UHGV virus genome: UHGV-0139590
Length of the DNA: 33,699 nt
Strand: one strand, 5' to 3'
Source of the DNA: a virus
Below the pieces are notes generated by a model that saw only the letters and a list, made by a program, of their open reading frames with translations, made no database searches and was not told the DNA's origin. The position numbers and the translations under genes are program-made. Below, in pieces: positions 12,045-32,194 of the stretch. How positions within the stretch are numbered: the stretch's first letter is position 1; each line of letters starts with the position of its first letter.

Positions 12045-12064
12045 CAAAACACAGACGCAATACC
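12045..12064 (+). promoter_or_regulatory. Conserved promoter-like box, copy 2 (CAAAACACAGACGCAATACC)
   Basis: Directly follows the terminator; about 25-40 nt upstream of the small membrane-protein gene. Confidence 0.4.
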
Positions 12065-12087
12065 TTCGGAGCGGGAAATTAAACACA

Positions 12088-12390
12088 ATGATGGGAGTAG
12101 CCATGAAGGATTTAACGCCGATTTATCACGCGATAGTCGCGGTTTTTGTGCAGTGCCTGATCGGTTTTATAACCGGCGCGTGGGGATTTGGTGGGGCGAT
12201 AGGCTGCGTGTGGTTTATTGCCCGCGAACATACCCAGGCGGAGTATCGCTGGATAGCTCGCTTCGGGAACGGTAAGCGCGCCAACATGCCGTGGTGGGGT
12301 GGTTTTGATTACAGGGTATGGAATATCGCCAGTGCCTTTGATTTTCAGGTGCCGGTGCTGGCCTGCATTATCGTTTACACCCTCACCTGA
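12088..12390 (+). CDS. Small membrane protein, possible holin/antiholin (95-100 aa)
   Basis: Three in-frame ATGs (12088, 12091, 12103). GGGAG sits 5 nt before ATG 12103 (MKDLTPIY...). Hydrophobic segments IVAVFVQCLIGFITGAWGFGGAIG and VLACIIVYTL. Bracketed by identical terminators. Confidence 0.5.
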   Translation: MMGVAMKDLTPIYHAIVAVFVQCLIGFITGAWGFGGAIGCVWFIAREHTQAEYRWIARFGNGKRANMPWWGGFDYRVWNIASAFDFQVPVLACIIVYTLT

Positions 12391-12413
12391 TCCCTTTATT
12401 CATATTTTATGTA

Positions 12414-12435
12414 AGCGCCTCCGGGCGCTTTTTTT
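12414..12435 (+). terminator. Rho-independent terminator, identical to 12016-12037
   Basis: AGCGCCTCCGGGCGCT + T7. Confidence 0.65.
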
Positions 12436-12442
12436 ATGCCCT

Positions 12443-12462
12443 CAAAACACAGACTCCATACC
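12443..12462 (+). promoter_or_regulatory. Conserved promoter-like box, copy 3 (CAAAACACAGACTCCATACC)
   Basis: About 38 nt upstream of the GTG start of the holin-like gene. Confidence 0.4.
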
Positions 12463-12499
12463 ATCCAGGCTCGAAGGGAAATTGAGAAAAGGTGGGAAT

Positions 12500-12814: not shown

Positions 12815-13266
12815 TGAGTAATTTGCAGGAGTATTGCTTTTACGGAATGGCCGCGCTGGCCGTCTTTGATCGCTTCATCCTGAAACGTAAAAAAATCAGA
12901 CTGGTGGAGTGTGGTGATGCCGTGGTGCGGGGGCAGGCGCTGGCATTCCCGCTGCGGTTTAACGTCTCTTGCTCCCGCCTGACTGGCGCAATGGTCGAGT
13001 ACAGCCTGCGTGACTCCAAAAACCCGACGGCGGTTATCACCGGTAAGACGCGGACGCTGGATTTATCAGTAAAAGGGATGAACGAAGAGTATTTGCTGAT
13101 TGACCAACGCTACCTGGAGGCCGGGACGTGGTTTCTATCGGTCCGTGTCACTCATGGCAACAGCCGCATGAATCCGTTATACCGAATTTTCCCGGTTCAG
13201 GAATCAATTACGCACAATTACAGCGTCACAAAAGATGAGCAGGGGGTTTTCAGTGTCAGCAACTAA
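12811..13266 (+). CDS. Hypothetical protein (151 aa) with N-terminal hydrophobic segment
   Basis: ATG 12811 with strong SD AGGAGGTG; overlaps the holin stop. Confidence 0.55.
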   Translation: MMSNLQEYCFYGMAALAVFDRFILKRKKIRLVECGDAVVRGQALAFPLRFNVSCSRLTGAMVEYSLRDSKNPTAVITGKTRTLDLSVKGMNEEYLLIDQRYLEAGTWFLSVRVTHGNSRMNPLYRIFPVQESITHNYSVTKDEQGVFSVSN

Positions 13267-13879
13267 CGGCTATGTAACCCTTAACTTTGACGAACTCAAT
13301 GTTAAAGGACTGGAAAAGCTTAAAAAAGCAGTCAGTAAGGCCGGTTATGAAGTCGTGAAGGTCACACCAGCAGGCCAGGCACGGCGCAAAGACGGTATTC
13401 CAACAAAAACCTTTGAGCTGAAAGGTATCGACGAGCAGGTAATGGTTGTTCAGGTCAATAACACTGGCGACATTTCCGGCATAAAGCTCAACGGCAAAAA
13501 CTCACCGTACACGCCTGTTAAGACTATGGCCGAGCTGGGAAAAGCACTGGCCGATTTGTTTAAGAAAGGCTCGACGGCGTTCCAAAAGGCCCTGGCGCGA
13601 AAGCTGGCCCGCGCGGCTAAAAAGGACCTCGATAAGGACAAGCCAAACACCAGCAAGGGTGTGAAATCCGGCGTCCAGATGCTCAGTGATGCCCGCGCTC
13701 GCCGTGATGCGCAGAAAGAGGCGATTGAGGCCGTTAATGAAAAACTCACCGCCCTGAAAACAGAGCAGGATATGACGCAGAAGGAGCACGGCAACCTGCA
13801 AAACGAGCTAAATCTGGAAGTGGCGAAAACAACTCAACTCCAGGACCTTATTGCTAAAGCGAAAGGCGGCAACGAATGA
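13235..13879 (+). CDS. Hypothetical coiled-coil protein (214 aa; start may be GTG 13253)
   Basis: Overlaps the upstream gene by 32 nt at ATG 13235. Alternative GTG 13253 has AGGGGG 7 nt upstream. Stop overlaps the next start (ATGA). Size is similar to P1 Hdf as recalled from memory (not verified). Confidence 0.5.
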   Translation: MSRGFSVSATNGYVTLNFDELNVKGLEKLKKAVSKAGYEVVKVTPAGQARRKDGIPTKTFELKGIDEQVMVVQVNNTGDISGIKLNGKNSPYTPVKTMAELGKALADLFKKGSTAFQKALARKLARAAKKDLDKDKPNTSKGVKSGVQMLSDARARRDAQKEAIEAVNEKLTALKTEQDMTQKEHGNLQNELNLEVAKTTQLQDLIAKAKGGNE

Positions 13880-16560
13880 TTGATTTAACGAAAGAGATTG
13901 AGTTAACTGACAAGCCAAACTTTGTGGCTCCGCCTCTTACTGATTCGGTTTACGCGGAGTTAATGACGGGCAGCAGCGCCGATATGATGCTGGAAAGTGT
14001 CACTATTGACGATGTGGATCATGCCTACCTGGGCGATGAAATGCTTTACGTCAGTATCGCCACTGGCAAAGCCATGTTCGAGGCCGTCACCAGTGAGCGC
14101 CTGCGCTTGTCACAGACTATGCGCGCGTTCGCGCGCTCGCTAAACCGTGGCCTGAACGGCACCGGCATCAAAGCGGGAACCGATGACGCCGGTATTGATG
14201 AAGAGGGGCGCAAAACCATTGGCGGCGCGATCATTGGCAAGGTTCGTCGGGTGAACAACATCCCGATCATGACCGCGCTAATTCCGCTCTCTGACGGGCA
14301 GTCTATCTCACTGATTTTCCATTCCCCGACAGCGGATAACGGACGCATCAAAAATAGCGATCTGCTGGTGGCGTTTCGCTTCCTGCTGAATAAGCGCGAC
14401 GTGACGCATATCGTTGCCCCGATTGGTGGTCGTGACGTGTCGTTGCAGCAAGTAAGCCAAGCGCTGGCGAACCTTGCCGAGCGTAACAGCGCGAAATTCA
14501 CCAAACAGCAATCCGCACAGGTGAAGCTGCGCGCTGATATTGAGGGGTTGAACGCGGAAGCGGACCAACTGAGCGAGCAGCAGTCCTCCCTCCTGGAACA
14601 GGTCGAGACACACCAGCAATCCCTGATGAATAGCCAGAGTGACGCGCAACAGCTGCGAGGCAAACTCGCCACACAGCGACAGATTAACGCCGAACTGGAA
14701 GCGCAGCTGGCCGCACTGAAAACGAACGCCGGCAGTGATGTAATTACGCTTCCGGGAGAGACTGGCCGCACCTTCTCTGACACTACGCGTAAGGTGAAAG
14801 AAGGGCTTTCCATGAGCGGCACCACCACGCTCAGCAATGGTGCGGAAGTGGCCTACAAAACAGCTGACGACAACGGCGATCTGGTGGGCTGGGTACAGAT
14901 TACCGATCCTTCCGGGCAGGTTTACAAAATGCCGTCATCGTCACCCCAGGGCGCAAAGATGGGCGAAACGGCAACCAAACTGCTGAAAGCCTACCGCGAG
15001 AACAAAGCGGATAAGTTTGCCGTGGCAGCACCGGTAGAACCGACCCCGGGAAGCGATGACACACAGCAGGGAGCAGGCGCTGATTTGCAGCAGTTGGTGG
15101 CCGTCATCGGTAATGGTCTGACAGACGCGGCAGCGGCTGACTGGGCGGCGAATAAAAAAGCCACGCCTGATTTTATTCGCTTCCTGATCCGCCAGTACGG
15201 CACCGCTGATGATAAAGCCAAACAGCGATTCGTTGAAGGGATCGAGAAGAGCTGGAAAATCAAGTTGCCGGGTACGGGCAGCGACAATCGGCTGGTGGCG
15301 AAACTGGCGCGCGATTACGTTGATAGCATGAAGCGGCCAACCGGCACTGATTTCCTCAACACCTATTTCATGGGCGAAGCGCCGAAAGCCAGCCAGAACC
15401 CGGTTTACGTTCCGCACGTTGAAGGCGGTGATTTCTTTGCAGCACCAATAAATACGGCCATAGATCGCTACCGCGAAGCGCTGCCAAACCCGAAATTGAA
15501 CAGTACCCTGAAAGAGCAGGCTAATTTCCTGATCCGTCTGGTCAAGGCCGAGAAAGATTTCGAAGGCCTGGCAGAGAGCGTGGAAGATGGTTTTGCACGT
15601 CTTGCTGACGGCTCAATATTGACGCTTGAAGACGGCAAGCTGTTATTGTCCACAACCGATGACGAAACGCACAATGCGAAATACTCCGTTGACGTTGGCG
15701 ATCGCGCCCTGGAGGAAGCCATTGAAGATCTGGTGAGTTCGTATCGTCTGGGTAACGTGGAATACATGACGCCGGAAAGCCGCGAGAAAAACAATCCTGA
15801 GCCGCCAAAACCCGTTAGCCAGCCATCACCCGGCAATTACCGCTATGCGCTGGTTAACCGCCCGGCAGGCCCGGCGACTATCCCGGAAGGCAATACGGCC
15901 ATCCTGCCGCCTATATCGCAAAACGAGCCGTATGGCCGCATCGCACGCCACGGTTTCGTAACGTATGACGCGCCGCTGTCAGACGCTGATATGGCCGCGT
16001 TTGAGCTGAAACTTATCCCTACGCATGCTGATCTTGATGCGCTGGCAACGACGATCGCTCAGGGCCGCATGAACAGTTACGCCGCTGAGTATCTGGAAAT
16101 GGCGACGGATGATGCCGATACGTTCCGCTCGCAGGTCAGTATCTTTGCCCGTAAAGACGCGCCTAACGTGGCATTCCCGCAGGGCGATGATCTGGCGTAC
16201 TTCCTCCAGGCGATGAAGGTTGCGCTGGCCGAGGCGGCGAAAACCCCGCCAGCAAAAGATACAGGCCCTGCCGAAGGAGAAGAAATTGTGAAAAAAGAGG
16301 CTTCCGAAGCCGCAGGAAGCGAAGAGCCATCCGAGGCCGATAAGGCAGCGAATGATGCGCTGGCATACCTGCAAAGCATCCTGTCATTGCAGTCAAAAGA
16401 TATGGGCGTTATCCGTGAAGCACGAACCAAAGTCCGTGGCGCGATTGGTACGCTCCAGGCAGCTGGCCGTGACGTGGATAATGAACCTCTGGTAAACGAT
16501 GCTGCGCAGCACCTTTCCGATCTGCTGGTGGCAATTCAGCGTGAAGGAGCAACCGCATGA
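13876..16560 (+). CDS. Large putative virion-internal protein (894 aa), DarA-like by position
   Basis: Long ORF with good codon structure and a central coiled-coil (EQQSSLLEQVETHQQSLMNSQSDAQQLRGKLATQRQINAELEAQLAALK). Function inferred only by analogy to the P1 darA operon, which follows lydA-lydB. Confidence 0.65.
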   Translation: MIDLTKEIELTDKPNFVAPPLTDSVYAELMTGSSADMMLESVTIDDVDHAYLGDEMLYVSIATGKAMFEAVTSERLRLSQTMRAFARSLNRGLNGTGIKAGTDDAGIDEEGRKTIGGAIIGKVRRVNNIPIMTALIPLSDGQSISLIFHSPTADNGRIKNSDLLVAFRFLLNKRDVTHIVAPIGGRDVSLQQVSQALANLAERNSAKFTKQQSAQVKLRADIEGLNAEADQLSEQQSSLLEQVETHQQSLMNSQSDAQQLRGKLATQRQINAELEAQLAALKTNAGSDVITLPGETGRTFSDTTRKVKEGLSMSGTTTLSNGAEVAYKTADDNGDLVGWVQITDPSGQVYKMPSSSPQGAKMGETATKLLKAYRENKADKFAVAAPVEPTPGSDDTQQGAGADLQQLVAVIGNGLTDAAAADWAANKKATPDFIRFLIRQYGTADDKAKQRFVEGIEKSWKIKLPGTGSDNRLVAKLARDYVDSMKRPTGTDFLNTYFMGEAPKASQNPVYVPHVEGGDFFAAPINTAIDRYREALPNPKLNSTLKEQANFLIRLVKAEKDFEGLAESVEDGFARLADGSILTLEDGKLLLSTTDDETHNAKYSVDVGDRALEEAIEDLVSSYRLGNVEYMTPESREKNNPEPPKPVSQPSPGNYRYALVNRPAGPATIPEGNTAILPPISQNEPYGRIARHGFVTYDAPLSDADMAAFELKLIPTHADLDALATTIAQGRMNSYAAEYLEMATDDADTFRSQVSIFARKDAPNVAFPQGDDLAYFLQAMKVALAEAAKTPPAKDTGPAEGEEIVKKEASEAAGSEEPSEADKAANDALAYLQSILSLQSKDMGVIREARTKVRGAIGTLQAAGRDVDNEPLVNDAAQHLSDLLVAIQREGATA

Positions 16561-16895
16561 CGTTAACCGCACTGGAACGGCTGGACCTGAATGACCAGCT
16601 CGATGAGCTGATGATTCAGGCCCAAACGGCCAAGGGGCTGGACCTTCTCGATCTGAATGACCAGATTGAAGAGGTTATGTTAAAGCTGGGGTTCGGCAGC
16701 ACCCGCGCCGCGCCTACGGATACGATCCCGTCCGTTGTCACGGAGTTTTTGGCCGGGAAGTTCGTCAACCAGCCGCAGATGGATTTTGTGGATACTTTGC
16801 GCGAGGTAGGCGCGTATCTGGACCAGTTCTTGTCGCTGGACGATATGCGGCAGCAGGTGCGAACCTGGATCGCCAAAAACAATTACGCCATGTGA
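16557..16895 (+). CDS. Small acidic protein (112 aa)
   Basis: ATG 16557 with GAAGGAG upstream; overlaps the upstream stop. Followed by a strong terminator. Confidence 0.6.
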   Translation: MTLTALERLDLNDQLDELMIQAQTAKGLDLLDLNDQIEEVMLKLGFGSTRAAPTDTIPSVVTEFLAGKFVNQPQMDFVDTLREVGAYLDQFLSLDDMRQQVRTWIAKNNYAM

Positions 16896-16925: not shown

Positions 16926-18135
16926 GTTCGCCGGTCGAAATCACAGCGTTTTATCCGTAATAGATTCAACGTTTATAAGGATGAACGGTTATTGACATCT
17001 TCCCGCCCTAAAGGATGGGGATTCCTACAGCCAGACGGCGATGCCCCGCCGCGAGAATGTTCTTTGCGGCGTTTACGTCGCGGTCGTGAGCGGTTCCGCA
17101 CTCACAACAAGTCCAGTCTCTTATTCGCAAGCCTGCTCTACCTTTCGGACTGTTAGCGGAGATAGCCCCGCAACACGAACAAGCCTGGGTGGAATATTTT
17201 TCGTTAACGACTTCGAACACTACCGACCGCGCAATCGCTTTGTATTTCAGTTGTGTTTTGAGCATGAACCAGCCAGCGTCCAGAACGCTTTTAGCCATTT
17301 TGGTTTTAACCAGTTTCTTACTGCTCACGTCGCCTACGAATATTGCCGCATGGCTGTTTACCAGTGCCGTGCTGTACTTATGCAGTGCATCTTTGCGGCG
17401 GTTCTTAATTTTGGCGTGAATGGCGCGTACGCGGGCTTTTTTGTTCGCCCTCTGCGCCTTGCCTAATGCGGGTTGCAGGTCACGATAAAACCTACCTGCA
17501 ACCAGTGGATCACCCTCTGACGGGGTGGCGTAGTCCTTTAATCCCAGATCTATGCCGATAGCTGTTATTCCCGTTGTCGGGGTGGTTTCGACTTCTACGC
17601 AGACATTGAAATACCAGCGCCCCCGACTATCTTCTGAAAAGCTACCGGCGCGGAATTTATAACCCGCCAGTCCGTAGCTATCCCACACCTTAAAATAGTG
17701 GCCTGCGAACTTGACGCAGCCATTTTGCCATTGCGCCTGCTTCGATTTAAACGGCACCCAGCCCAGAGAACGGCGAGCTCCGCCACTGACACGCCAGCGC
17801 AGACGCGAGCGTTTAAACTGCTTCCGCGCTTTGCCGTGGTCTGCGATCACTTCCTGCACCGTGGCGCTGCCGATGATATAGCCGCGCTCTTTCTGAATAC
17901 CTGCCGTCATCTTCTGAACGTCGAACGCCGACAGCCAGCGGGGAATTTGCGCACCAAAAGCGCCAGCGTTGCTGTATGCCTCGCTGGTTATCTCGTTTGC
18001 CAGATTAAAGACCTGATTGACCTCAAAGGCCATCTGCCGCAAAACGGCGGCGTGGCGGTCTTTAACCCGGACGGATAATGTTTTGATGCGCGTATTCATG
18101 CTCATTACTCCCGCCCGCAGGCGGGAGCCTCCGGG
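16926..18135 (-). mobile_element. IS200/IS605-family insertion element carrying only tnpB (IS1341-like); boundaries approximate
   Basis: Single TnpB ORF, with a perfect 8-bp stem / 4-nt loop hairpin (18108-18127) immediately upstream of its start, as in subterminal left-end hairpins of this family. No tnpA and no terminal inverted repeats, as expected. Confidence 0.6.
17008..18105 (-). CDS. tnpB: TnpB (IS605 OrfB-family RuvC-like, RNA-guided nuclease family), 365 aa
   Basis: RuvC-like motifs GIDLGLKDYATPSEG and HDRDVNAAKNIL; zinc-finger cysteines CSCCG...CCECG near the C-terminus. ATG 18105 with GGGAG upstream. Confidence 0.8.
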   Translation of the reverse strand: MSMNTRIKTLSVRVKDRHAAVLRQMAFEVNQVFNLANEITSEAYSNAGAFGAQIPRWLSAFDVQKMTAGIQKERGYIIGSATVQEVIADHGKARKQFKRSRLRWRVSGGARRSLGWVPFKSKQAQWQNGCVKFAGHYFKVWDSYGLAGYKFRAGSFSEDSRGRWYFNVCVEVETTPTTGITAIGIDLGLKDYATPSEGDPLVAGRFYRDLQPALGKAQRANKKARVRAIHAKIKNRRKDALHKYSTALVNSHAAIFVGDVSSKKLVKTKMAKSVLDAGWFMLKTQLKYKAIARSVVFEVVNEKYSTQACSCCGAISANSPKGRAGLRIRDWTCCECGTAHDRDVNAAKNILAAGHRRLAVGIPIL

Positions 18136-18666
18136 TTAGATCACAAACCAGTCTTCGGCCTGCTCGTCATTCAGCGAAGGGAAAAATTCCACCTCACCTC
18201 CATTAGAATCGAGCAAAAATAAATCATCATTTTCAATGAGAACGTAGCTCGCCGGAACCCAGCTAAGACGCCCTATGAATCGACCAGTACGCGCTGAAAA
18301 ACGCAGTGCTAATTCATACTTCACGTTGCGCCCCCGAAATATTCCAGTAGTTAATCTGAGGGCGATTTGTCGCAGTAAACCGGGCAGAAAAGATACAAGG
18401 TGCGTCGGGTAGTTGAGAACGGGCTTCGGATTCGCTTGCAGCAATAACCGTGTGATAGCGGCGTTTCTGGCAGGAATAGAAGCGCCATATAAATTCAGAG
18501 TGAATCTGGGTAGGGATTGCCAGCATGAGCTGATCTCCGATAACAGTTTAAAACTATCACCACCTGGAGTTTCCACGCTCTGATTGGTGGTGACGCTGAC
18601 GGGGGTGGAAATACCGGCGTTATCGGGAACCGGCCAGCCCGAGAGCTGCCCCGCCAGCGCCACCAT
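18136..18666 (-). CDS. Hypothetical protein (176 aa), weak call
   Basis: Longest ORF in a region with several overlapping ORFs on both strands. No clear SD. Ends exactly at the IS left boundary. No HUH motif, so not TnpA. Confidence 0.3.
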   Translation of the reverse strand: MVALAGQLSGWPVPDNAGISTPVSVTTNQSVETPGGDSFKLLSEISSCWQSLPRFTLNLYGASIPARNAAITRLLLQANPKPVLNYPTHLVSFLPGLLRQIALRLTTGIFRGRNVKYELALRFSARTGRFIGRLSWVPASYVLIENDDLFLLDSNGGEVEFFPSLNDEQAEDWFVI

Positions 18667-18718
18667 AATTTTGTGCGGATCTGTGCCGCTGAATATGGGG
18701 GTACTGACTTACGACAAT

Positions 18719-18741
18719 AAAAAAAGACGCCTGGCGCGTCT
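18719..18741 (-). terminator. Hairpin (AGACGC-CTGGC-GCGTCT) with T7 on the minus strand
   Basis: On the minus strand the stem is followed by TTTTTTT; on the plus strand it is preceded by A7. Confidence 0.4.
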
Positions 18742-18994
18742 GTTGTCGCCGATAACAATTTGCCGGGTTTCCACGCCCGTGCAGACCTTTTTCGTCTGCG
18801 AGAGCAAATGTAACCACCCGGAATGCAGTTTGCAACCACTTTGATTACATATCGGATGACAACAACATTGCCATACTGTCATACAATCGCACTGTAATAC
18901 AATAACAATTAGATTTACTGTTATTTTTCTTCGGTCAGTTGATTGCACATAGTTCATATCATCCCGTTACCGAAAACAGTTAGAGGGCAGGGCA

Positions 18995-20412: not shown

Positions 20413-20432
20413 CTAAAACACAAACTGATTAC
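20413..20432 (+). promoter_or_regulatory. Conserved promoter-like box, copy 4 (CTAAAACACAAACTGATTAC)
   Basis: Follows a terminator and precedes the hydrolase gene by about 33 nt, the same arrangement as copies 2 and 3. Confidence 0.35.
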
Positions 20433-20464
20433 GGTGAATTCTTCTTTCAACTGAGGAATTCACT

Positions 20465-22508: not shown

Positions 22509-23534
22509 TCACTTTCGATGTGGCCTGAGCCACAGCGCGGGCGTGTCATCGTCGGCGTGGCGTACTTTCGTGCCTACTGGCGCGGGCTTATGAGCCGATC
22601 TCCCGCCGTCCAGCGGCAGCGTTGCGCCTGCCGAGCCGACAGCAGATTCCAGCATGGCCGCAAGCACCATTGCGTCGTCTTCGGTTTCCATTCGGATCAG
22701 CGCCTGCTTCTGCTCCTTACTCAGGAACACCGGCAGCTCCGACACGGCATTGCGCAGGATTTTTCGACGTTTCGCCGCAGAATCCCCCTGGCTTTCCAGC
22801 ATCATGTTAACGTCGCGCAGGCGCTGCTCCACTTCCATTAAGCGCCCCTGGCTGGCCCATAGCTGGCTTTCCAGCTGGCCGGTACGCTCCACGGACTCCA
22901 GCATTGCCTGGTTGGTTCGCATTTTTTCGAAGTGGTGGCACAGGTCCGTCGCGGCGTTATCGCTGTAACCGGCGTTGCGCAGCGCGTTGTGCATTTGCTC
23001 GCCCCGGGTGTCGGCAGACTCCAGCATCATGCTGCTTTTATCCAGGCTGACATAGTTCGGAATGGTCACGTAGTCCATGCCGTGATAATTGTTCACCAGC
23101 GAGCGGATCGCCCCGTCTTTGCCACCCGTAACCCATGACCAGCCGCCCGCGTTAGAGGCGATCATGCCTTTCACAATCTGGCCCGGGTCGGTATCCAGTA
23201 TTTCCTGGGTGTGAGTGACAATGCCGTTATCGTCCACGTCGATTGCGACGGTGCGGTTAGACGGTACATTGGTCAGCGTTACCGGCTTGCCGTCCACCAG
23301 CACCACACTGACCTCCGGCAGGGTGAGCTTGCCGTCCTTCTCATACTGCAAGGCGCGGCGTCCGTGGCCGTAGTAGCCAAACATTTCACCCAGTTTTATA
23401 TGCTCGCGCACTTCTGGATCGTTGAACGTGGCGCGCACGGTCTGAATGATGTAGTTGCGGTCATTCTGCGGCGTGTGGCGTCGAATTTTGTCGATAAGGG
23501 AAAAGCGATCGGTAACGGTTTGAAGTGTTTTCAT
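22509..23534 (-). CDS. Putative head maturation protease / scaffold (341 aa)
   Basis: ATG 23534 with AAGAGAG upstream. Immediately downstream of the portal gene on the same strand. C-terminal half is coiled-coil-like, as in scaffolds. Protease assignment is by position only. Confidence 0.5.
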   Translation of the reverse strand: MKTLQTVTDRFSLIDKIRRHTPQNDRNYIIQTVRATFNDPEVREHIKLGEMFGYYGHGRRALQYEKDGKLTLPEVSVVLVDGKPVTLTNVPSNRTVAIDVDDNGIVTHTQEILDTDPGQIVKGMIASNAGGWSWVTGGKDGAIRSLVNNYHGMDYVTIPNYVSLDKSSMMLESADTRGEQMHNALRNAGYSDNAATDLCHHFEKMRTNQAMLESVERTGQLESQLWASQGRLMEVEQRLRDVNMMLESQGDSAAKRRKILRNAVSELPVFLSKEQKQALIRMETEDDAMVLAAMLESAVGSAGATLPLDGGRSAHKPAPVGTKVRHADDDTPALWLRPHRK

Positions 23535-23544: not shown

Positions 23545-25230
23545 TTAATTTTGGCTCATGACAAATTTGGCGAAGTTGAGTAGCTGGGTACGGCTCCAGT
23601 GCTCAGGGTTTTCATGACGATCTGGCGCGGATTCATGCATCATGTCCTCGTCGTCAAATTCGTGCTCAGCGGATACGGCTTTAAACTCGGTCAGCATCTT
23701 TTCCAGCATCTGCGGGTCCATCTTGAGCTGGTCACAGAACAGGTAGCGCATGAAGGTATCGCTGCCCGCCAGCTTCGGACTCTGCTGTATCTGGTCGAGG
23801 ATCTGGGTGATGATGGAAATGAAGTTGGCGCGGGCGTCCTGATCGCGGGCCTCTTCTGCCATCAGTGCGGTATTCATGGAGTTGAATTGCACGGTGAAAG
23901 GGCGCTGGTTCGGCAGGTAAATCTTGCCGTGCTTATACGCCAGGTGGATATCCACAAAGCGATAGATAGCGTCTGCCACGGCTTGTCGCAGCCACTGCGC
24001 GCGCTGCGCCGCATGAATGGCAGTTTGCGCCCAGCCGCCTTCCCCCAGACCGCCAGACATTTGATCTGCCCACCCCAACATCGTTGAATCAATGCCCAGG
24101 CTTGAGCACAGCTGGCGCAGGTGAAACATCACATCTTCAATGCCGGTGATATCTGCCGGGATGTACTGCGTATCCACGGTGACGCCGTTCTTGCCGTCGC
24201 CCATCAGCGGGATCAGGTGGTTCAGTACGGTCGGCATGGTGCTGGCCTGGACGGACCGGCGCGCCAGCGTCTCTGCGTTGCGTTTCAGTGATTGCGCTAC
24301 GCTGCGCGTGTAGTTGGCGGCGTTAACCGGGTCCAGTGTGCCGGTGGTCAGTGCGATCAGGCGGTCGATTTTGGCGGCGTTATAGCGCGTGGCTTTCAGG
24401 GCATTCAGCGCCCCGCACAGGTTCATAAATGGCTCGTAGGAGTGCTCCAGGAAGCTGGTGCCGTAATTCTGCGTCTCCATCAGATTCTGATCCTGAACGT
24501 CATTCATCAGGGTGTAGCCGCGCGTGCCGGTGGTCATCGGGATCAGGTTACGGCTCGGGGTCCAGTACGGGTTTTTGACCGGCACGATAAACCACGGCTC
24601 CGCCAGGGTCCGTTGCAGGTTGTCCGGGGTCAGCAGGTAATCGCCGGTATAGCCCGCCAGCTGCCCGCCCCGGTGGAATTCCTGGATGAAGTGGGGAAGG
24701 GTGTAATAGCTGGACTCGATGTTAACGATCCCCCGCCCGGGCTCGCCGTATGGCCGGGTAAAGCCCACGCCGAAAATCGACATAAGCAACCCCCATCCGG
24801 GCATCCCGTTATTAATCATTTCCCCCAGGTCTTCCATCAGCTCATTGCAGCGGGTGACGGCCTCTTTGTCTGCCGGGTTCTTTGCCACCAGCGAGAACGC
24901 CAGCCCGCTTCTTTTGCTGGGTGACAGGGCGTGTGCAATGTGGATATTGAGCGCGCTGGATACCGTGGCGCTTTTAGACATTTCCTCCAGGATCGGATAT
25001 TTGGCGAGGCGGTCCAGGGGCAGCGTCAGCCCAATGCCGAGGCTGTCCGCTTCCGTCGTCAGTTCACCCGGCGCATCGCCAGGCTTACCGACCAGCGTAG
25101 CCAGCCCGGACCGTGACACGACGTTATGCCCACTACTCAAAGGCAGATGGGAAACGGGCGTTTTGGGCGCGCTGGTGAACAGCTTTTTCAGGGCCGTGAT
25201 CGCCCCGTTAGTCGAGTTTCTGTTTGCCAT
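23545..25230 (-). CDS. Portal protein (about 561 aa)
   Basis: Large ORF directly upstream of the protease/scaffold gene and divergent from the DarB-like gene, matching P1-like prt-pro gene order. ATG 25230 is preferred over the ORF-track GTG 25263. Identification by size and context, not by a verified motif. Confidence 0.6.
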   Translation of the reverse strand: MANRNSTNGAITALKKLFTSAPKTPVSHLPLSSGHNVVSRSGLATLVGKPGDAPGELTTEADSLGIGLTLPLDRLAKYPILEEMSKSATVSSALNIHIAHALSPSKRSGLAFSLVAKNPADKEAVTRCNELMEDLGEMINNGMPGWGLLMSIFGVGFTRPYGEPGRGIVNIESSYYTLPHFIQEFHRGGQLAGYTGDYLLTPDNLQRTLAEPWFIVPVKNPYWTPSRNLIPMTTGTRGYTLMNDVQDQNLMETQNYGTSFLEHSYEPFMNLCGALNALKATRYNAAKIDRLIALTTGTLDPVNAANYTRSVAQSLKRNAETLARRSVQASTMPTVLNHLIPLMGDGKNGVTVDTQYIPADITGIEDVMFHLRQLCSSLGIDSTMLGWADQMSGGLGEGGWAQTAIHAAQRAQWLRQAVADAIYRFVDIHLAYKHGKIYLPNQRPFTVQFNSMNTALMAEEARDQDARANFISIITQILDQIQQSPKLAGSDTFMRYLFCDQLKMDPQMLEKMLTEFKAVSAEHEFDDEDMMHESAPDRHENPEHWSRTQLLNFAKFVMSQN

Positions 25231-25249: not shown

Positions 25250-25269
25250 AAAATACAGACCACTTAGAA
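25250..25269 (+). promoter_or_regulatory. Partial copy of the conserved promoter-like box (AAAATACAGACCACTTAGAA)
   Basis: Core AAAA-N-ACAGAC matches the other four copies; the downstream half is divergent. About 50 nt upstream of the DarB-like start. Confidence 0.25.
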
Positions 25270-25317
25270 TTGCGCTGATTTTATCGGGTCTATGTTTTGC
25301 AGACACAAGGTTAAAAA

Positions 25318-28300
25318 ATGGCAAACACTGTATTGGATCATCTGAACAGTGCCGGATCGCTGGATGAGATTGTTACCCTCATTCTTCGGCTGCGAAAATC
25401 GCGCGCCGTGGCACAGTTCGGCATTGTCAAAGAGGACGGCGTGAGTATTCAGCGCGCGCGGCGAGCTGCAAATAACGCTGCAATGCGCCTGCTGCAAGAG
25501 CTGCCGGAGAACATGGACGGCAATAAGCTGACTGACGAACAGCGGCAGGTGCTGGCCGGTTATACCGGGGAAGGGGGCCTGACAGACGGAGGCAGTCAAT
25601 ACGAGTATTACACTCCACAGTTTATGGCAGAGGGTATCTGGGATCTGATGGCCGATTATGGCGTTACATCAGGCCACGTCCTGGAACCGTCCGCCGCAAC
25701 CGGCATCTTCCAGGAAACCAAGCCGCAGGGGGCGATCATGACCGCCGCCGAAATTTCGCCGGTTTCTGGCCGCATCAACCAGCTGCTGCACCCGGAAGAC
25801 GATGTGCGCATGGGGGCATTTGAGGACCTGGCCGCGAACGTGGGCGATGACACCTACGATCACGCCGTCGGCAATATCCCGTTCGGTGAAAGCCGTACCG
25901 GATATGCTGAGCGCGATCCGGCGTACAAAGGGGAAACGAACGTCGGGCATTACTTTGTCCTGCGTACCATCGACAAGGTGAAGCCGGGCGGGCTGGTGGT
26001 GCTGGTGGTGCCAAACGGCATGACCGACGGCGGCGGAACCAACAAAAAGCTGCGTGATAAAGTGGCGCGCCGCGCGGAGTTTCTGGGGGCGCACCGTATG
26101 CCGTCCGGCACTTTCGCCGAAAGCGGCACCGCGACAGTGGTTGACGTGTGGGTACTGCGTAAACACACCCGCGCGCTGGCAGAGATCGTCAGCAATGCCG
26201 ACGATAAAACCCTGACCGCCGCCCACGTACTCTGGCCGACGTTCCTCAAGGGCAAATGGTTTGCGACTGAGGGCAAGCGGTTTGTCCACGGCGAAACAGA
26301 GCGATCCAGCTTCAACAACATTCTGACGGTCAAAAAAGACGGCCGCGTAACCAATGAAGGCATGAAACAGGCGTTATCGCGCCGGTTTGACAGCCGTATC
26401 GCCTGGGAAATGCTGGACGTGAACCAGGATGCATACAAAGGCGCGAATGAAGGTGATAAGCGGCTGGTGGGCGGTATCTGGCATGTTTATGACGGCGAAA
26501 CGTGGGTCCGTGACAGTACGACCGATCGCAGCGGCATTGACGCGGAACGCTTCGGGGCGCAGACCTTCGGGGATCTCCAGACAAAATGCCGGTCGCTGCA
26601 TGGCCTGCTGTCTCTCAGCGCCAGCCAGCTCGCCGCCATTGCTGATGTCTATCCGGCGCTGCTGACCGATCGCCAGCACAACGTGATGACGTTTGCTCGC
26701 CAGCAAAAGCCATCCCAGCGCGAGCGCGCGCTGCGTGGGGCGCTGATTGGCCTCACCATCAACGATGCGCAGGACCTGATCGCCCAGGGCAATGATGCAG
26801 GCCCGCTGCTGGCCGACGCCGCGCGTATGGTTGAACAGGAAATTGCGGTCTATGGCTCACCAAACGGCCTGCGCCTGGCCGGGCTTTCCGATCCCGCGGC
26901 TAAAGGCTGGCTGACCTTCCAGGGCAACGTTACCCGCGACAGTAAGCTCTCTGATTTGTTGACCGGTCGCCTTAATACCGAGTCTGTTTCTCCGGTCGAT
27001 ACCGGCAACCCTGAGCAGGTTGTGGCACACCTTTTCAGCCAGATTGACCTGGTGCCGGTGTCGCTTGAGCAATTCCGTGACTATTGCACCGCGCAGCTGC
27101 CGTCCTCAGATGACGCGCTTCTGGACTACCTGGCGAACTTCCCGGAAATCGCGCTCGATGGCTACGGCAACATTCTGCCGATGTCGCGCGCCACCAGCGG
27201 CAACGTGCGCGGGAAAATGACCACGCTGGCCGCGCAGATAGCCGGACTCCAGGACGGCCCGCAAAAGCAAAATCTGGTACGCCAGATGATGCTGATTGAC
27301 GAAAAGCGTAACCCGGTCCCGATCGACAAAATCACGGTAAACCTTAACGCCCGCTGGCTTGATCGTCGTTTGATTAAAGAGTTTCTGGCCGAGCAGGGTT
27401 ATGACGCTTTTAAATACACCCAGGACATTCAGGTGGAAGACGGTTTCCTTGTCTCCCCGGATGATTACGCGGGCAAGGACGGCGTTTTCAGTGGCTATAA
27501 GCTGCGCACCGTTACCAGCAAGGGTGTCACTGAATTTAAGCAGGCCAACAACAGCGACGGCTTTTTAAACCAGCTGGAAAACTACCTTAACGGCGTCAAG
27601 CCGCGCGGGGTGAATGCTGCCCAGTACCTGGATCGCATCGGCAAGCTGGAAGCCTCTTTCAACGACTGGCTGAAATCGCACCCGGACGTTACCGGCGTTG
27701 AGAATGATTACAACGACGCGTTTAACAACTACGTCCCGTTCGAGCATTCCAGCGAATCTCTGAGTCTCGAAGGCATTTCCGGCAAACGTATCCCGCTGAG
27801 TTACCAGAACTCCGAGGTTCGCCGTCTTTCAGAGGACGGGCGCGGCATTATGGGATTCGGCACCGGTCTGGGTAAAACCACGACCGCGCTGGCGCTGGAG
27901 GCGTTTAACTTCCAGCATGGCCGCTCAAAACGGACCGCGATTGTCGTACCGAAGGCCGTTTATCAGAACTGGTATCACGAAGCGCGCGACTTCTACGGTG
28001 ACGCGGCATTCAGTCAGATGCTTTTTATCGGACTGGATGAAGTGATGGGCGATAACGGTATTCAGCAATCGCAGGTACGCAACGAGAACAACGAACCGGT
28101 TACGGATAGCGACGGCAACCCGGTAATGCGTAATGTCCTCAAGGATGCCGATACCGCCACCATTCTGGAGCGTCTGAACCGTATCCCTGCGTCGAATTAT
28201 CGCTCAGTCATCATGACAAAAGAGCAATTCGGCATGATCCCGATGCGCCCGGAAACGATTGAAGAGAACTCCGCGCAGGCGCTGTATAACGCCGTCGATA

Positions 28301-31300
28301 TGGGCCGCACTGACCTGATGAAATCGACGCACCGCGCAGAGCTGGCGAAGAACAAACTCAAAGACAAGGCCGCAGACACCGGCACCGAGAAGAAACAGCA
28401 GGTTCCGTACTTTGAGGACATGAACTTTGACAACGTGATCGCAGATGAAGGCCACAACTACAGGAACTCGCTTTCTGCTGGCCGTGAAACCGCGCAGCTG
28501 GCGTACCTGCCTAACCCGGCTGTATCGCAGATCGCGCGTGATATGTCGGTCAAGTCAGCCTGGTTGATGAAGAAATACAACGGGCGCGGCGTCACGCTGC
28601 TGACGGCCACACCGCTCGTTAACTCGCCGCTCGATGCCTTCAACATGTTGAGCCACGTCGTGCCGGTTGAAGACTGGAAGGCAATGGGCATCCTGACACC
28701 GGACGACTTTGTGCGCGTGTTCGGCGAAACCGCAAACGTGGTGGTGCAGAAGATATCCGGCGAACTGATGGATAAGCAGGGGCTGGTGGGCTTTAAAAAC
28801 CTGGACGGGTTGCGCGGTATCTTCCATCGCTGGACCACGTTAAAGACCGCTGCTGACGTGAAAGAAAGCGTCAAAATCCCGGACCTGAACGAGAAAAACG
28901 TAGAGGTTCCGCTGACCGATGAGCAGAAAGAGCTGTACGAAGCGTTGCGTAAGCGCGCCAGCCTGATCGGGCAGAAAGAGATCATCACCAAAAATGAAGA
29001 CGGCACGGTAACAGTCGAGCAAAACAAAGACGATGATTTTATCTTTTCCGTTATCCGCGACATGGACAAGATGGTTATCGACCCGGACTTATACCGATCG
29101 TCGCTGACCTTCCGTTTCCTGCCTGCCGATCTGGAAAAGGTCAAAGTTATTGCGGCCAGTCTGCCAGCCCATGCGGGTGGCAAAGAGGCCGATGATGATG
29201 ACGAGGTGGAAGAAAACGAGGCCGGGCTGGTGGACACTCGCACCAGTAAGGTTGTGGCAACGACCGTGACCGAAAAGGCCGACGCTACAGAGCTGATGGT
29301 CAGCGTGGATCTGGAAGCTGAGGTGATGAAAGCGATCGCCGCTGCCGGTATCAGTATGAAAACCGTCACGCACCCTATCCCGCCAAAATATGCGGCCATG
29401 ATTGAGAACCTGAAAGCCGGGATGCAGAACGGCAAGCAGATCATCTTTATGGACGAAAAGACGCAGCACAACAAACTACGCCGCATCATCGCCAGCGCGC
29501 TGGGGCTGGATGAAGGCCAGATAGGGATCATTAACGCCACGACTGTCAGCAAGGCAACCGGGCCGAAACTCAAGAAGGTTAAAAAGCCGGTTGAGCCTGC
29601 CGAGCGCGCCGACGGCAATTACAAAGAGGGTGCGTGGGAAAAATATTACGCCGACCTGGCACGATATGAAGATTACCAGTCTGCGCTCAATGACGTGTCG
29701 CTCTCCGGCATGGAGGGGATCGCCGCCGACTACAACGAAGGCCGGACCCCGATTGTTATCTGCAACAAAAAGGCAGAGGTCGGCATTAATTTGCACAAAG
29801 GCACTACGGATATTCACCATTTAACCTTCCCCTGGACGCCAGCGAGTATTTCGCAGCGTAACGGGCGCGGGGCGCGTGTTGGTTCCAGCCAGGACTCGGT
29901 GAATGTGCATTACTACTGCGGCCAGGGATCGTTTGATGAATTCCGTCTCCAGACGCTACAGCGCAAAAAGGACTGGATTAATCAGATCATGACATCCGAC
30001 ATGTCCACCTACAAAAACGGTGACGTGGATGAGAAAGATGAAATTAATCTGATGCTGGCCGCGAACCCGGAAGAGCGACAGGCGCGCATTAATGCCCAGC
30101 TGGCCGCACGTCGTGAAGTTGAACGACTCCGTGCTGAGAAGGAAGCCGAAACCGCGCTCGATGTGTACCTGCGCGCGTCCGTGGCAGCGAAAGAAGATCC
30201 GGTGGTGCTCGCCAGCCGCCTGGAGAGTGCCGAGCAAAAACTCACAGCGCACGAAGCGAAGGTGGAAGAATACCGCGCTTGGGTGAACAAAGAGGAAAGC
30301 GACTACAACAGCTGGATGGAAAGTCACGGCAAGCGCAGCGCAGATATTTACCACGCTGAACCGCGCCGCCGTGCTCGCTCAACCCTGAAAACAGCAGTTG
30401 AAACTCTGGTGGAGCTGAAAACGGATGTGAAGAAAGCACGTAACGTGCTCAGTCGGTCGAAAAGCGCCTCAACGATGGTGAAGCGGGCGCGCGGCGATCT
30501 GGAGCGTAGCATTAAAGCAGGCATCATTGACGTTGATCCCGATGTGCTGCTTAACCCGTCGCAGTACGTGAAAACGGCAACTGGCACCCTGCTGAAAGCT
30601 GGGGCGTATTACTGGATCGTTGGTGATTATCGCTACGTTGGTCGAATCACCCGCCTGATGCCTGATCAGGGTGCGGTGGAAGTGGATGTGATGTATGCCC
30701 CCATTAACGCGAATAGCTACAGGACACCGGGCGGAGGCGTGAGAGAAGTGCTGATGTCGAAGGTACGCGATCAGGTTGACGTAACCGAAAGCCAGGCCGT
30801 CGCCCGTCGCCGCGCTAACGCTGGTTTGTGGCCTTCCGAAGTCGCATCCACGCTCAGCCGTGCGGAGTTTATCGACGCCGTAGCGGGTAATTACCTGCGC
30901 GTGAAAGGCGATACATGGATGCAATATTCCGACGCCGGCACACTGGAAATGTTTTACGTTGCGGGTGGACTCAGCAGCGATAACCCGGAGCGCCTGGTTT
31001 ACCCGGACAGCAACGACGAAGGTTTAAAGCGCGCTATGTATCAATTCTCCGTGAACAACGGCATCTATTCCGTGCGCACCATGTATTCGGCGGTATTCGG
31101 TGAGAACTACAGCGAAGTGCTGGAAGGGTACGGCGAACAGGCAACGATGGCCGATGCGCTGGACATCTTCGAAACCGCTCGCCGGGAAGCCGAGAAGGAC
31201 AGTGGTGCGATCCTTGCCGGTGCATCAGAAGAAGAGGTGAATTCTGCCTTCTTCAATGGCGTGGATAGTGCCGTGCGCTTCTGGCAAGGCAGTCTGTCAG

Positions 31301-32160
31301 TGCGCAAGGTGATGACACACAGCAAGCGGTTCAGCAACCAGACGGAGATCCGCCAGTTTATCAGCACCATTCTGGACGATCGCATTGCCGTCAAGATTGA
31401 TGAGATTAACGAGGCCGTAGGGCGCGCCGCGAAAGAGCTGTACGCACAGTGCGAACGCCTGGAAGGGCGAACGGCGCTGGAGGAAGTGCGCCAGCTGGAT
31501 GACATGGACATTTCCGGCTTTATGAATCGCGCGCAGCAGTCGCGTAACCTGATGGCGCTCAACCTGCCCGAGCTGGTGATGGCCGGTGTGCTGGTGGGCG
31601 CATATTCACGTCAGATGGTCAATGCTGGTGTGTTCACGTCAGGAAGCCGGGTGCGTCAGCTGCTGGACTCTGGCCGCTACAAGTTGAAAGAGGTTAAAAA
31701 CGGGGGCTACAAGCCGCTTGCAGCCTCTTTTGATGAGTGGCTTGGCCTGATGGCCGGTGATCTCTCCGATACCGAGCTGGCCGCGCTGCGCGAGGCAGAA
31801 GAGGCCCGCAAGGCCAGCGAGGCAGAAGTCTTTGCCGGTCAGCAGGCGGCGGCAGGCGAATACGGTTATGTTGCCAGCACCAACCAGCAGGAGCTGGCAG
31901 GCCAGCGCAAATGGAAAAACCGCACGTTCAGAATGAGTTTCCCGGCTGGTGGTGCGCATGTGCTGAGTGACAGCAACGGTCGCGCCACGCTCAAAGCGAA
32001 GGCTGTACGTACCATGCTGAAAGAGAAGTACGGCGCGCAATTCTGGAACTTTGAAGACGATCCGGTGGCGGGTAATGAGTTTACCCAGCCAGCATGGATT
32101 GTGCCGTCACGATTCCCTATTGAACAAATTCACAGTGATATTCAGGCACTGGTCAGCTAA
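25318..32160 (+). CDS. darB: Giant N6-adenine methyltransferase / SF2 helicase fusion (2280 aa), DarB-like anti-restriction virion protein
   Basis: MTase motif I VLEPSAATGIF (about 25678-25710) and motif IV GNIPFGE (about 25866-25889). Helicase motifs GFGTGLGKTT, DEGH, LLTATP and QRNGRGARVG between about 27850 and 29880. Size and architecture match P1 DarB (about 2255 aa), next to portal/protease as in P1. Confidence 0.75.
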   Translation: MANTVLDHLNSAGSLDEIVTLILRLRKSRAVAQFGIVKEDGVSIQRARRAANNAAMRLLQELPENMDGNKLTDEQRQVLAGYTGEGGLTDGGSQYEYYTPQFMAEGIWDLMADYGVTSGHVLEPSAATGIFQETKPQGAIMTAAEISPVSGRINQLLHPEDDVRMGAFEDLAANVGDDTYDHAVGNIPFGESRTGYAERDPAYKGETNVGHYFVLRTIDKVKPGGLVVLVVPNGMTDGGGTNKKLRDKVARRAEFLGAHRMPSGTFAESGTATVVDVWVLRKHTRALAEIVSNADDKTLTAAHVLWPTFLKGKWFATEGKRFVHGETERSSFNNILTVKKDGRVTNEGMKQALSRRFDSRIAWEMLDVNQDAYKGANEGDKRLVGGIWHVYDGETWVRDSTTDRSGIDAERFGAQTFGDLQTKCRSLHGLLSLSASQLAAIADVYPALLTDRQHNVMTFARQQKPSQRERALRGALIGLTINDAQDLIAQGNDAGPLLADAARMVEQEIAVYGSPNGLRLAGLSDPAAKGWLTFQGNVTRDSKLSDLLTGRLNTESVSPVDTGNPEQVVAHLFSQIDLVPVSLEQFRDYCTAQLPSSDDALLDYLANFPEIALDGYGNILPMSRATSGNVRGKMTTLAAQIAGLQDGPQKQNLVRQMMLIDEKRNPVPIDKITVNLNARWLDRRLIKEFLAEQGYDAFKYTQDIQVEDGFLVSPDDYAGKDGVFSGYKLRTVTSKGVTEFKQANNSDGFLNQLENYLNGVKPRGVNAAQYLDRIGKLEASFNDWLKSHPDVTGVENDYNDAFNNYVPFEHSSESLSLEGISGKRIPLSYQNSEVRRLSEDGRGIMGFGTGLGKTTTALALEAFNFQHGRSKRTAIVVPKAVYQNWYHEARDFYGDAAFSQMLFIGLDEVMGDNGIQQSQVRNENNEPVTDSDGNPVMRNVLKDADTATILERLNRIPASNYRSVIMTKEQFGMIPMRPETIEENSAQALYNAVDMGRTDLMKSTHRAELAKNKLKDKAADTGTEKKQQVPYFEDMNFDNVIADEGHNYRNSLSAGRETAQLAYLPNPAVSQIARDMSVKSAWLMKKYNGRGVTLLTATPLVNSPLDAFNMLSHVVPVEDWKAMGILTPDDFVRVFGETANVVVQKISGELMDKQGLVGFKNLDGLRGIFHRWTTLKTAADVKESVKIPDLNEKNVEVPLTDEQKELYEALRKRASLIGQKEIITKNEDGTVTVEQNKDDDFIFSVIRDMDKMVIDPDLYRSSLTFRFLPADLEKVKVIAASLPAHAGGKEADDDDEVEENEAGLVDTRTSKVVATTVTEKADATELMVSVDLEAEVMKAIAAAGISMKTVTHPIPPKYAAMIENLKAGMQNGKQIIFMDEKTQHNKLRRIIASALGLDEGQIGIINATTVSKATGPKLKKVKKPVEPAERADGNYKEGAWEKYYADLARYEDYQSALNDVSLSGMEGIAADYNEGRTPIVICNKKAEVGINLHKGTTDIHHLTFPWTPASISQRNGRGARVGSSQDSVNVHYYCGQGSFDEFRLQTLQRKKDWINQIMTSDMSTYKNGDVDEKDEINLMLAANPEERQARINAQLAARREVERLRAEKEAETALDVYLRASVAAKEDPVVLASRLESAEQKLTAHEAKVEEYRAWVNKEESDYNSWMESHGKRSADIYHAEPRRRARSTLKTAVETLVELKTDVKKARNVLSRSKSASTMVKRARGDLERSIKAGIIDVDPDVLLNPSQYVKTATGTLLKAGAYYWIVGDYRYVGRITRLMPDQGAVEVDVMYAPINANSYRTPGGGVREVLMSKVRDQVDVTESQAVARRRANAGLWPSEVASTLSRAEFIDAVAGNYLRVKGDTWMQYSDAGTLEMFYVAGGLSSDNPERLVYPDSNDEGLKRAMYQFSVNNGIYSVRTMYSAVFGENYSEVLEGYGEQATMADALDIFETARREAEKDSGAILAGASEEEVNSAFFNGVDSAVRFWQGSLSVRKVMTHSKRFSNQTEIRQFISTILDDRIAVKIDEINEAVGRAAKELYAQCERLEGRTALEEVRQLDDMDISGFMNRAQQSRNLMALNLPELVMAGVLVGAYSRQMVNAGVFTSGSRVRQLLDSGRYKLKEVKNGGYKPLAASFDEWLGLMAGDLSDTELAALREAEEARKASEAEVFAGQQAAAGEYGYVASTNQQELAGQRKWKNRTFRMSFPAGGAHVLSDSNGRATLKAKAVRTMLKEKYGAQFWNFEDDPVAGNEFTQPAWIVPSRFPIEQIHSDIQALVS

Positions 32161-32194
32161 CACAGGAGCGCCCGGGAAACCGGGCGAAAGACTT

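Follow-up and report, generated by a model that had tools for sequence, protein, structure and literature searches.

A probable darB ortholog in a P1/D6-like plasmid-prophage fragment of the virus genome UHGV-0139590

Here, we present an analysis of a 6.8-kb gene in a stretch of 33,699 nucleotides (nt) from the virus genome UHGV-0139590. This whole stretch is referred to as the window, and residues are numbered along the 2280-amino-acid (aa) protein encoded by the gene. We found that the gene is very probably the darB ortholog of a P1/D6-like plasmid prophage whose hosts are of the Enterobacter/Leclercia type and that, by analogy with P1, its product would have virion and anti-restriction roles. 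With the analysis, a third lineage of P1-like plasmid prophages (the Enterobacter/Leclercia type) gains a DarB ortholog and a complete Dar cassette, and a first domain map of the C-terminal third of DarB is provided, while what is known of the DarB mechanism stays as it was. Moreover, the comparison with relatives separates the invariant parts of the protein, i.e., both catalytic cores, from those that vary freely (the N-terminal ~40 residues and residues ~1640-2200), and it redirects the idea of a packaging signal away from the C terminus.

Homology, catalytic cores, and the proposed function

In a tblastn search against 50,697 phage records, the protein aligned end to end with gp15 of D6 (53% identity over residues 3-2275) and, with 43% identity and E = 0, with DarB of P1, P7, and other punaviruses (residues 12-1979 versus P1 residues 11-1966). 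The extreme C terminus of P1 DarB aligned only weakly, and residues 1980-2200 had no BLAST match to P1 DarB (~15% identity in the alignment). PHROG 1685 matches residues 9-2276 of 2280, and PHROG 10089 ("DarB-like antirestriction") is matched as well. The initial annotation, made by a model from the sequence alone, had proposed a resemblance to P1 DarB, and these matches bear it out. Because the homology is colinear and full length, the likeness goes beyond that of generic motifs, and by these comparisons the similarity is orthology. Consistently, the features by which a P1-type DarB can be recognized in sequence (PHROG 1685/11801 and the LPD36-methylase-SNF2 dyad) are all found in the protein. 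The ortholog is an ordinary addition to a known family, and near-identical proteins are already in RefSeq under generic names: WP_139565507.1 from Leclercia adecarboxylata pZ96-1_2 is 97.5% identical and an Enterobacter hormaechei "SNF2-related protein" (P0002) is 99% identical, both over the full length, and an identical protein is present on an 87,280-bp scaffold. At E <= 1e-10, 1136 relatives were found; the best 120 of these are mostly ~2200-2300 aa long, and many lie on 80-100-kb contigs from Enterobacterales, Aeromonas, and Pseudoalteromonas.

The reading frame is uninterrupted, and an open frame of 6.8 kb that carries methylase and helicase motifs is not a chance feature. The frame and all six motifs listed in the initial annotation are present exactly where it had placed them (Table 1), and its assignment of these motifs to an N6-adenine methylase and a superfamily 2 (SF2) helicase is independently backed by Pfam, in which N6_Mtase (residues 176-286; 27.4 bits versus a cut-off of 20.4) and SNF2-rel_dom (residues 843-1054; 45.6 bits versus 24.9) score above their cut-offs. 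Helicase_C (residues 1466-1522; 22.6 bits) falls slightly below its cut-off of 23.5, and ResIII and Eco57I also score slightly below threshold. Ahead of the methylase core, the protein has the features of the LPD36 module described by Iyer et al., who assigned to it a GxGU motif and a TP cap and assigned the methylase to an EcoKI/TaqI-like type (PMC5512222): YTGEGG at residues 82-87 (GxGG at 84-87) and YYTP at residues 97-100, with the TP capping the methylase. In a profile search of PDB sequences, only the methylase and SNF2 cores were matched. The best matches of the methylase core were type I HsdM proteins, including the EcoKI M protein, and the SNF2 region weakly matched SMARCAD1 and SNF2L2. 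For the middle region (residues 301-830), no family match was obtained in the Pfam, NCBIfam, and PDB-sequence profile searches.

Conservation was read along an alignment of 119 sequences of relatives. Identity to the P1 and D6 proteins is 55% and 77%, respectively, in the methylase region (41-300) and 57% and 69% in the SNF2 core (831-1560); it is 37% and 59% in the middle region, 27% and 39% in a predicted stalk (1561-1745), 21% and 26% in C1 (1746-1980), 15% and 19% in C2 (1981-2200), and 21% and 32% in C3 (2201-2280). Invariant in all 119 sequences are G84, G86, G87, T99, and P100 of LPD36 and its TP; E123, G129, and F131 of methylase motif I and N186, P188, and F189 of motif IV; and, in the helicase, G850, G852, K853, D1043, E1044, H1046, A1097, T1098, and P1099 together with Q1513, R1514, G1516-G1518, and R1520 of motif VI. 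Ala occupies position 127 in this protein and in 16 of the 119 aligned sequences; the others have Gly there. The ratio of nonsynonymous to synonymous substitution rates (dN/dS), computed against the Leclercia ortholog, is 0.054 for the whole gene and 0.023-0.025 for the two enzymatic cores. Because both catalytic centers are invariant, we favor an active enzyme and, on that ground, adopt the translocating-methylase/motor model of Iyer et al., who described the methylase-SNF2 dyad among polyvalent proteins and proposed that it is a translocating methylase (PMC5512222).

In P1, DarB is a virion protein detected with 37 unique peptides by LC-MS/MS and present in ~40 copies (Gonzales et al. 2022, PMC9024508). 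Incorporation of the Dar proteins of P1 is stepwise, with Hdf and DarA preceding DdrA, DdrB, DarB, and Ulx. The proteins are ejected together with the DNA, and protection from EcoB and EcoK has been linked to DarB along with Ulx and DdrB (PMC12810830, PMC9024508). Deletion of darB sensitizes P1 to EcoB and EcoK (PMC11109961), and Dar protection acts only in cis (PMC12707154). By analogy, we infer late expression, packaging, ejection, anti-restriction activity, and the chemistry of the DarB ortholog. According to this model, darB would be transcribed late from a phage late promoter, and the ~30 residues at the N terminus would guide the 250-kDa protein into the procapsid in dependence on Hdf/DarA, DdrA/DdrB, and Ulx. 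Tens of copies would exit the head together with the DNA and, in the new host, act in cis on this DNA to prevent cutting by type I restriction. In doing so, the SNF2 motor would carry the protein along the duplex as it enters, with the HsdM/TaqI-like N6-adenine methylase modifying the DNA, and/or the motor would block or displace translocating type I complexes; contacts to partners or DNA would be made through the C-terminal scaffold.

Three other explanations were weighed against this model. First, DarB could act by occlusion only, coating or capping the incoming DNA, with the methylase and ATPase motifs serving DNA binding or ejection. The cis-only action and the physical-obstruction model discussed in the literature (PMC12707154) fit this explanation, as do the copy number in the P1 virion and a C-terminal third that looks like a large non-catalytic scaffold in the structure models, and no methylation by DarB is reported in the literature cited on P1 DarB (PMC9024508, PMC12810830, PMC11109961). 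However, the catalytic residues of both enzymes are invariant in the 119 relatives down to ~37% overall identity, the low dN/dS in the enzymatic domains is hard to explain without catalysis, and about 40 copies are too few to coat ~90 kb of DNA; we therefore consider occlusion alone unlikely. Second, the protein could be a general motor for the establishment of infection, for example by drawing the DNA inward or by remodeling it for circularization or replication, with anti-restriction as a side effect. In favor of this, the protein contains a SNF2 translocase, presumably reaches the cell along with the DNA, and is a member of the "polyvalent protein" class that is deployed early in invasion (PMC5512222). 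Still, P1 darB deletion phage has been produced and used on non-restricting hosts (PMC9024508), which argues that DarB is not needed for DNA entry and makes this explanation quite improbable.

Third, the gene could encode a defense or restriction-modification enzyme of the prophage (type ISP/III-like, DISARM DrmD-like, or BREX-like) that guards the lysogen against other phages rather than counteracting restriction. Those systems likewise combine a methylase with a helicase, and NCBIfam gave weak matches to DISARM DrmD, an anti-phage PLD protein, and MADS MAD2. The matches are, however, far below their cut-offs (30 bits versus 610, 32 versus 1100, and 14.8 versus 720, respectively) and confined to generic helicase or methylase segments, and Pfam, NCBIfam, and fold searches found no nuclease, PLD, or specificity-subunit domain in the protein. 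Nor are there partner nuclease or specificity genes: the neighbors are head, lysis, tail, and Dar genes, and the gene itself lies between head genes behind a late promoter-like site. Together with its orthology to P1 darB, the deletion of which has the anti-restriction phenotype described above (PMC11109961), these observations leave a defense function hardly credible.

Several points weigh against the translocating-methylase model or against transferring the P1 functions to this ortholog. In all 119 relatives, P1 among them, methylase motif IV reads N-[V/I]-P-F and not the canonical NPP(Y/F). The chemical mechanism of DarB is undefined even in P1 (PMC11109961), and another proposal is physical shielding that needs no catalysis (PMC12707154). 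Over the first 30 residues, identity is just 26% to P1 (34% to D6), so that the transfer of the packaging signal is a matter of analogy. In the neighborhood, ddrB is short and split from ddrA by a 2-kb TnpB insertion; the accessory set thus differs from that of P1. Finally, the late promoter-like motif described below was derived from the same sequences in which it was then counted and is, for that reason, supportive rather than proven.

The N terminus and the C-terminal third

N-terminal truncations of P1 DarB abolish packaging, and a reporter is targeted to the capsid by the first 30 residues of the protein alone but not by the first 9 (PMC9024508). By analogy, the N-terminal 30 residues of the ortholog would be a capsid-targeting sequence; they keep the amphipathic pattern of the family (a hydrophobic residue at position 9, A12, S14, E17, L/I18, I22, L25, and R29). 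The dN/dS of the first 40 residues is 0.47, the highest in the gene, based on small counts. We speculate that this fast evolution fits with co-evolution with capsid partners. The initial annotation had suggested that the C-terminal third could hold the packaging signal. This idea conflicts with the P1 data, and because the N-terminal 30 residues suffice for packaging in P1, a signal at the C terminus is unlikely.

Past residue ~1600, no match was found in Pfam, NCBIfam, or PDB sequences, in line with the initial annotation, which had recognized no motif in the C-terminal ~750 aa. An exhaustive HMMER search with residues 1540-2280 against 1.84 billion cluster representatives returned only 48 clusters at E <= 0.001, and because all of these are DarB-length proteins or fragments thereof, this region is confined to P1-type DarB. 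Using a 35-row alignment, we generated two confident AlphaFold models, one of residues 1540-2280 (model 1) and one of residues 1745-2280 (model 2), with mean predicted local distance difference test (pLDDT) scores of 85.2 and 88.7, respectively. Domain mapping, as proposed in the initial annotation, resolved the modeled region into a predicted stalk, a small barrel, an alpha/beta segment, a helical domain, and a C-terminal alpha/beta domain (Table 1). The stalk region is indel-rich across the family. The C-terminal alpha/beta domain is conserved above the region that precedes it and weakly alignable to the C terminus of P1 DarB; K2235 and W2260 are invariant in the alignments. Foldseek comparisons of the models with PDB and BFVD gave nothing at E <= 0.001, with only coiled-coil look-alikes and small barrels among the matches. 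For the all-helical domain (aa ~1901-2181), the fold searches yielded no structural match, and in the C-terminal third as a whole they recognized no catalytic fold and lend no support to the further activity that the initial annotation had considered there. From these negative results, which are no proof, we read the C-terminal third as a non-catalytic, DarB-specific scaffold or adaptor that probably mediates protein or DNA contacts.

The C-terminal third is the most divergent part of the protein at longer distances; nevertheless, its dN/dS is low (0.064-0.117 in the stalk, C1, and C2, with 0.064 in C2, and 0 in C3, the last 80 residues, which have no replacements), arguing that the region is functional and constrained by purifying selection. 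The shuffling of C-terminal modules was considered and rejected: the divergence of residues 1981-2200 tracks that of the helicase core (r = 0.84), and there is no pair with a conserved C terminus on a diverged core, which argues for rapid divergence instead of domain swapping. As a tentative idea, on the doubtful side in our judgment, the helical domain (aa ~1900-2180) and the SH3-like barrel might form a specificity module that recognizes host restriction/BREX complexes or the DNA end during ejection. If so, the fast, lineage-tracking divergence would record an arms race with host defenses, and swapping the C-terminal third between P1, D6, and this phage would alter which restriction systems are evaded.

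Gene neighborhood and expression signals

The window corresponds to a whole metagenomic contig (ENA ERZ1744290, NODE_392). Over 85% of its length, its DNA shares 89% identity with ~90-kb non-mobilizable L. adecarboxylata plasmids, and it is syntenic gene by gene with P1 and D6. The gene order is sit, pmgA, bplA, gene 16, R, S-type tail fibers, lydA, and lydB, followed by hdf, darA, ddrA, ddrB, a CHAP-domain gene, pro and prt on the minus strand, darB, ulx, and an orf13 homolog. Judged by this gene content, the window is a fragment of a P1/D6-like plasmid prophage with all six known Dar genes (hdf, darA, ddrA, ddrB, darB, and ulx). As stated in the initial annotation, the portal and protease genes adjoin darB; prt and pro lie immediately upstream and are divergent. 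The ulx ortholog, the counterpart of the DarB packaging partner in P1, is 47% identical to P1 Ulx and 58% to that of D6, and hdf-darA-ddrA-ddrB lie 5-12 kb upstream of darB. DdrB shares 76% identity with its D6 counterpart and 59% with the N-terminal half of the P1 protein.

The motif AAA(A/G)(C/T)A(C/T)A(G/A)AC-N4-TANNNT was spotted by eye in these sequences and then formally searched. It occurs at six sites in the window versus 0 expected, all of them intergenic and aimed at late genes, including a divergent pair between darB and prt (Table 1). Four of the six sites, among them that of darB, are conserved in the Leclercia plasmid; the motif was not found in the D6 locus. The layout of box, spacer, and −10 element is the same as in the P1 late promoters, of which the −22 box, extracted from the P1 record, is AAGTGACTT-N4-TANNNT; here, the box itself reads AAAAYACAGAC instead of AAGTGACTT. 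The P1 −22 box is absent from the intergenic regions of the window, and use of the P1 Lpa box was rejected, as a search for the AAGTGACT-type box gave a single intragenic match, consistent with chance. These signals suggest late transcription of darB, divergent from that of prt/pro, which is what one would expect for a protein packaged into the head. The apparent replacement of the P1 Lpa-type box by a lineage-specific box implies a late activator of altered specificity encoded outside the window.

Other sequence elements were observed in the window. A 53-nt cassette consisting of a GC hairpin, a T-run terminator, and the late promoter-like motif is duplicated at 12015-12067 and 12413-12465 (89% identity, 398 nt apart), and the two copies flank a 100-aa open reading frame (ORF; 12088-12390, PHROG 1443) upstream of the lysis-dar operon. 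Between the darB stop and the ulx start, at 32169-32186, lies a GC hairpin in which a perfect stem of 7 bp encloses a GAAA loop (CGCCCGG-GAAA-CCGGGCG); it has no T-run. The AT-rich palindrome GTGTGACTGTCATATTGTAATACAGTCACAC is located at 7410-7450 upstream of the R/S late promoter, and ACTGT(C/A)ATACAAT units are repeated at 18865-18935 upstream of ddrB; both may be regulator binding sites, and LexA spacing is not fitted. The Chi sequence GCTGGTGG occurs 29 times in the window versus 1.25 expected (20 on the plus and 9 on the minus strand), and eight of the sites are inside darB (25992-31952). Enrichment of Chi is known for P1. Chi and EcoKI sites on plasmids mimic anti-restriction through restriction alleviation, by which plasmid-based DarB assays are confounded (PMC11109961).

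Relative to Leclercia pZ96-1_2, an insertion of ~2 kb lies between ddrA and ddrB at 16954-18967. It holds a gene for TnpB (IS605 OrfB/Cas12f-like) at 17008-18105 on the minus strand, the DNA of which is 86% identical to copies on Klebsiella plasmids, and an Ash-family/icd-like ORF at 18136-18666, also on the minus strand. The insertion may uncouple ddrB from the promoter of the dar operon. DarA (13876-16560) contains an internal segment of ~800 bp at ~15031-15830 that has no counterpart in P1, D6, or Leclercia. Among the tail genes, the gene 16 homolog (baseplate/tail tube; 5218-7404) encodes 728 aa versus 278 aa in P1, and its extension contains three tandem repeats of ~444-450 bp (6123-7103). 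The Sit-like transglycosylase/tape-measure protein (310-3399) starts with tandem repeats of 24 nt (8 codons) rich in Lys, Thr, Ala, and Glu at ~520-770, which explain why the first kilobase has 63% GC and an extreme AT skew (0.56); of P1 Sit, just a short stretch (its residues 400-504) matches this protein. Two tandem tail-fiber modules at 8000-10380 and 10390-11990, each followed by an ORF of ~95 aa, share segments of 73-81% identity (10020-10229/11627-11836 and 9023-9138/10552-10667). No cin-type invertase or invertible segment was found within the window.

Table 1. Features of the darB ortholog and of the surrounding window (positions in the window; residues of the 2280-aa protein)
Feature	Position	Strand	Residues	Basis or remark
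darB ortholog	25318..32160	+	1-2280	ATG start; LPD36 - N6-adenine methylase - SNF2 ATPase - DarB-specific C-terminal region
N-terminal 30 residues, putative capsid-targeting sequence	25318..25407	+	1-30	analogy with P1; family pattern kept
LPD36 helical module and gamma-class N6-adenine methylase core	25438..26217	+	41-300	Pfam N6_Mtase, Eco57I; PDB HsdM matches
Methylase motif I, VLEPSAATGIF			121-131	EPSAATGIF at 123-131
Methylase motif IV, GNIPFGE			185-191	GNIPFG at 185-190
Middle region, no recognized fold	26218..27807	+	301-830	moderate conservation; dN/dS 0.047
SNF2-type SF2 ATPase/translocase	27808..29997	+	831-1560	Pfam SNF2-rel_dom, ResIII, Helicase_C
Helicase motif I, GLGKT			850-854	
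Helicase motif II, DEGH			1043-1046	
Helicase motif III, TATP			1096-1099	
Helicase motif VI, QRNGRGAR			1513-1520	
Three long helices, predicted coiled-coil stalk	30067..30516	+	~1584-1733	model 1 helices 45-86, 89-131, 133-194
Predicted SH3/Tudor/BAH-like small beta-barrel	30565..30774	+	~1750-1819	AlphaFold models
Predicted short alpha/beta segment			~1824-1880	AlphaFold models
Predicted all-helical domain, fastest-diverging part	31018..31860	+	~1901-2181	model 2 helices 157-437
Predicted small C-terminal alpha/beta domain	31867..32157	+	~2184-2280	model 2 strands 440-519, helix 524-535
hdf	13235-13879	+		tblastn; Pfam DarA_N
darA, 894 aa	13876-16560	+		tblastn; Pfam DarA_N and DarA_C
ddrA	16557-16895	+		tblastn; PHROG 1855, DdrA-like
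ddrB, short D6-like form, 459 aa	18995..20374	+		tblastn; Pfam ddrB-ParB
pro, prohead protease	22509-23534	-		tblastn to P1 and D6; gene calls
prt, portal	23545-25230	-		tblastn to P1 and D6; gene calls
ulx ortholog, 144 aa	32195..32629	+		PHROG 1629 'Ulx-like anti-restriction', E = 2.6e-44
Late promoter-like element into darB, AAAATACAGAC-CACT-TAGAAT	25250..25270	+		AAARYAYARAC-N4-TANNNT; 47 nt upstream of ATG
Divergent late promoter-like element into prt/pro	25278..25298	-		AAARYAYARAC-N4-TANNNT
Late promoter-like site	7492-7512	+		upstream of R/S
Late promoter-like site	12046-12066	+		upstream of lysis-dar operon
Late promoter-like site	12444-12464	+		upstream of lysis-dar operon
Late promoter-like site	20415-20435	+		upstream of CHAP gene

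Comparison with known systems

At the level of the locus, the window shares features with both P1 and D6. As in P1, darB and prt are divergent, ulx is downstream of darB, and the hdf-darA-ddrA-ddrB operon is present. As in D6, the ulx and orf13 homologs are directly downstream of darB and DdrB is short; however, in D6, repL, icd, ant, and further genes lie between darB and prt/pro and all are on one strand, whereas here darB and prt are divergent neighbors. P1 DdrB has 995 aa, and its C-terminal half, which is predicted to be a metallopeptidase (Iyer et al., PMC5512222), is missing from the DdrB encoded here. DarA is longer here than in P1 (639 aa), D6 (645 aa), and Leclercia (646 aa). Leclercia pZ96-1_2 has neither the TnpB insertion nor the additional darA segment but carries, immediately downstream of the part that matches the short ddrB, ~1.95 kb of extra DNA. 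The RefSeq relatives from Leclercia and Enterobacter are encoded on plasmid-prophage replicons of ~85-90 kb with the same gene order as the window; they are labeled "N-6 DNA methylase" or "SNF2-related protein" and never DarB.

At the level of the protein, the likeness to D6 gp15 (ASR76325.1, "similar to P1 gene darB") spans the entire 2280 aa, including the C-terminal third, and DarB of P1/P7 (YP_006479.1, 2255 aa) has the same architecture, including the ~500-aa middle region and the long C-terminal region. By contrast, the giant virion proteins of PHROG 10089 from Bcep22-like, Thermus, and other phages have the LPD36-methylase-SNF2 core in common with the ortholog (26-32% identity over parts of aa 65-1593) but have neither the middle region nor the C-terminal third of the P1 type and bear other effector domains. 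Among solved structures, HsdM (EcoKI M, PDB 2ar0/2y7c; 7eew) comes closest to the methylase core, with very weak matches (E = 7e-4 to 0.03) that fit the EcoKI/TaqI-like assignment (PMC5512222). Unlike HsdM, the DarB ortholog has no HsdS/HsdR partner; rather, its methylase is fused to a SNF2 motor and encoded in a putative phage late operon.

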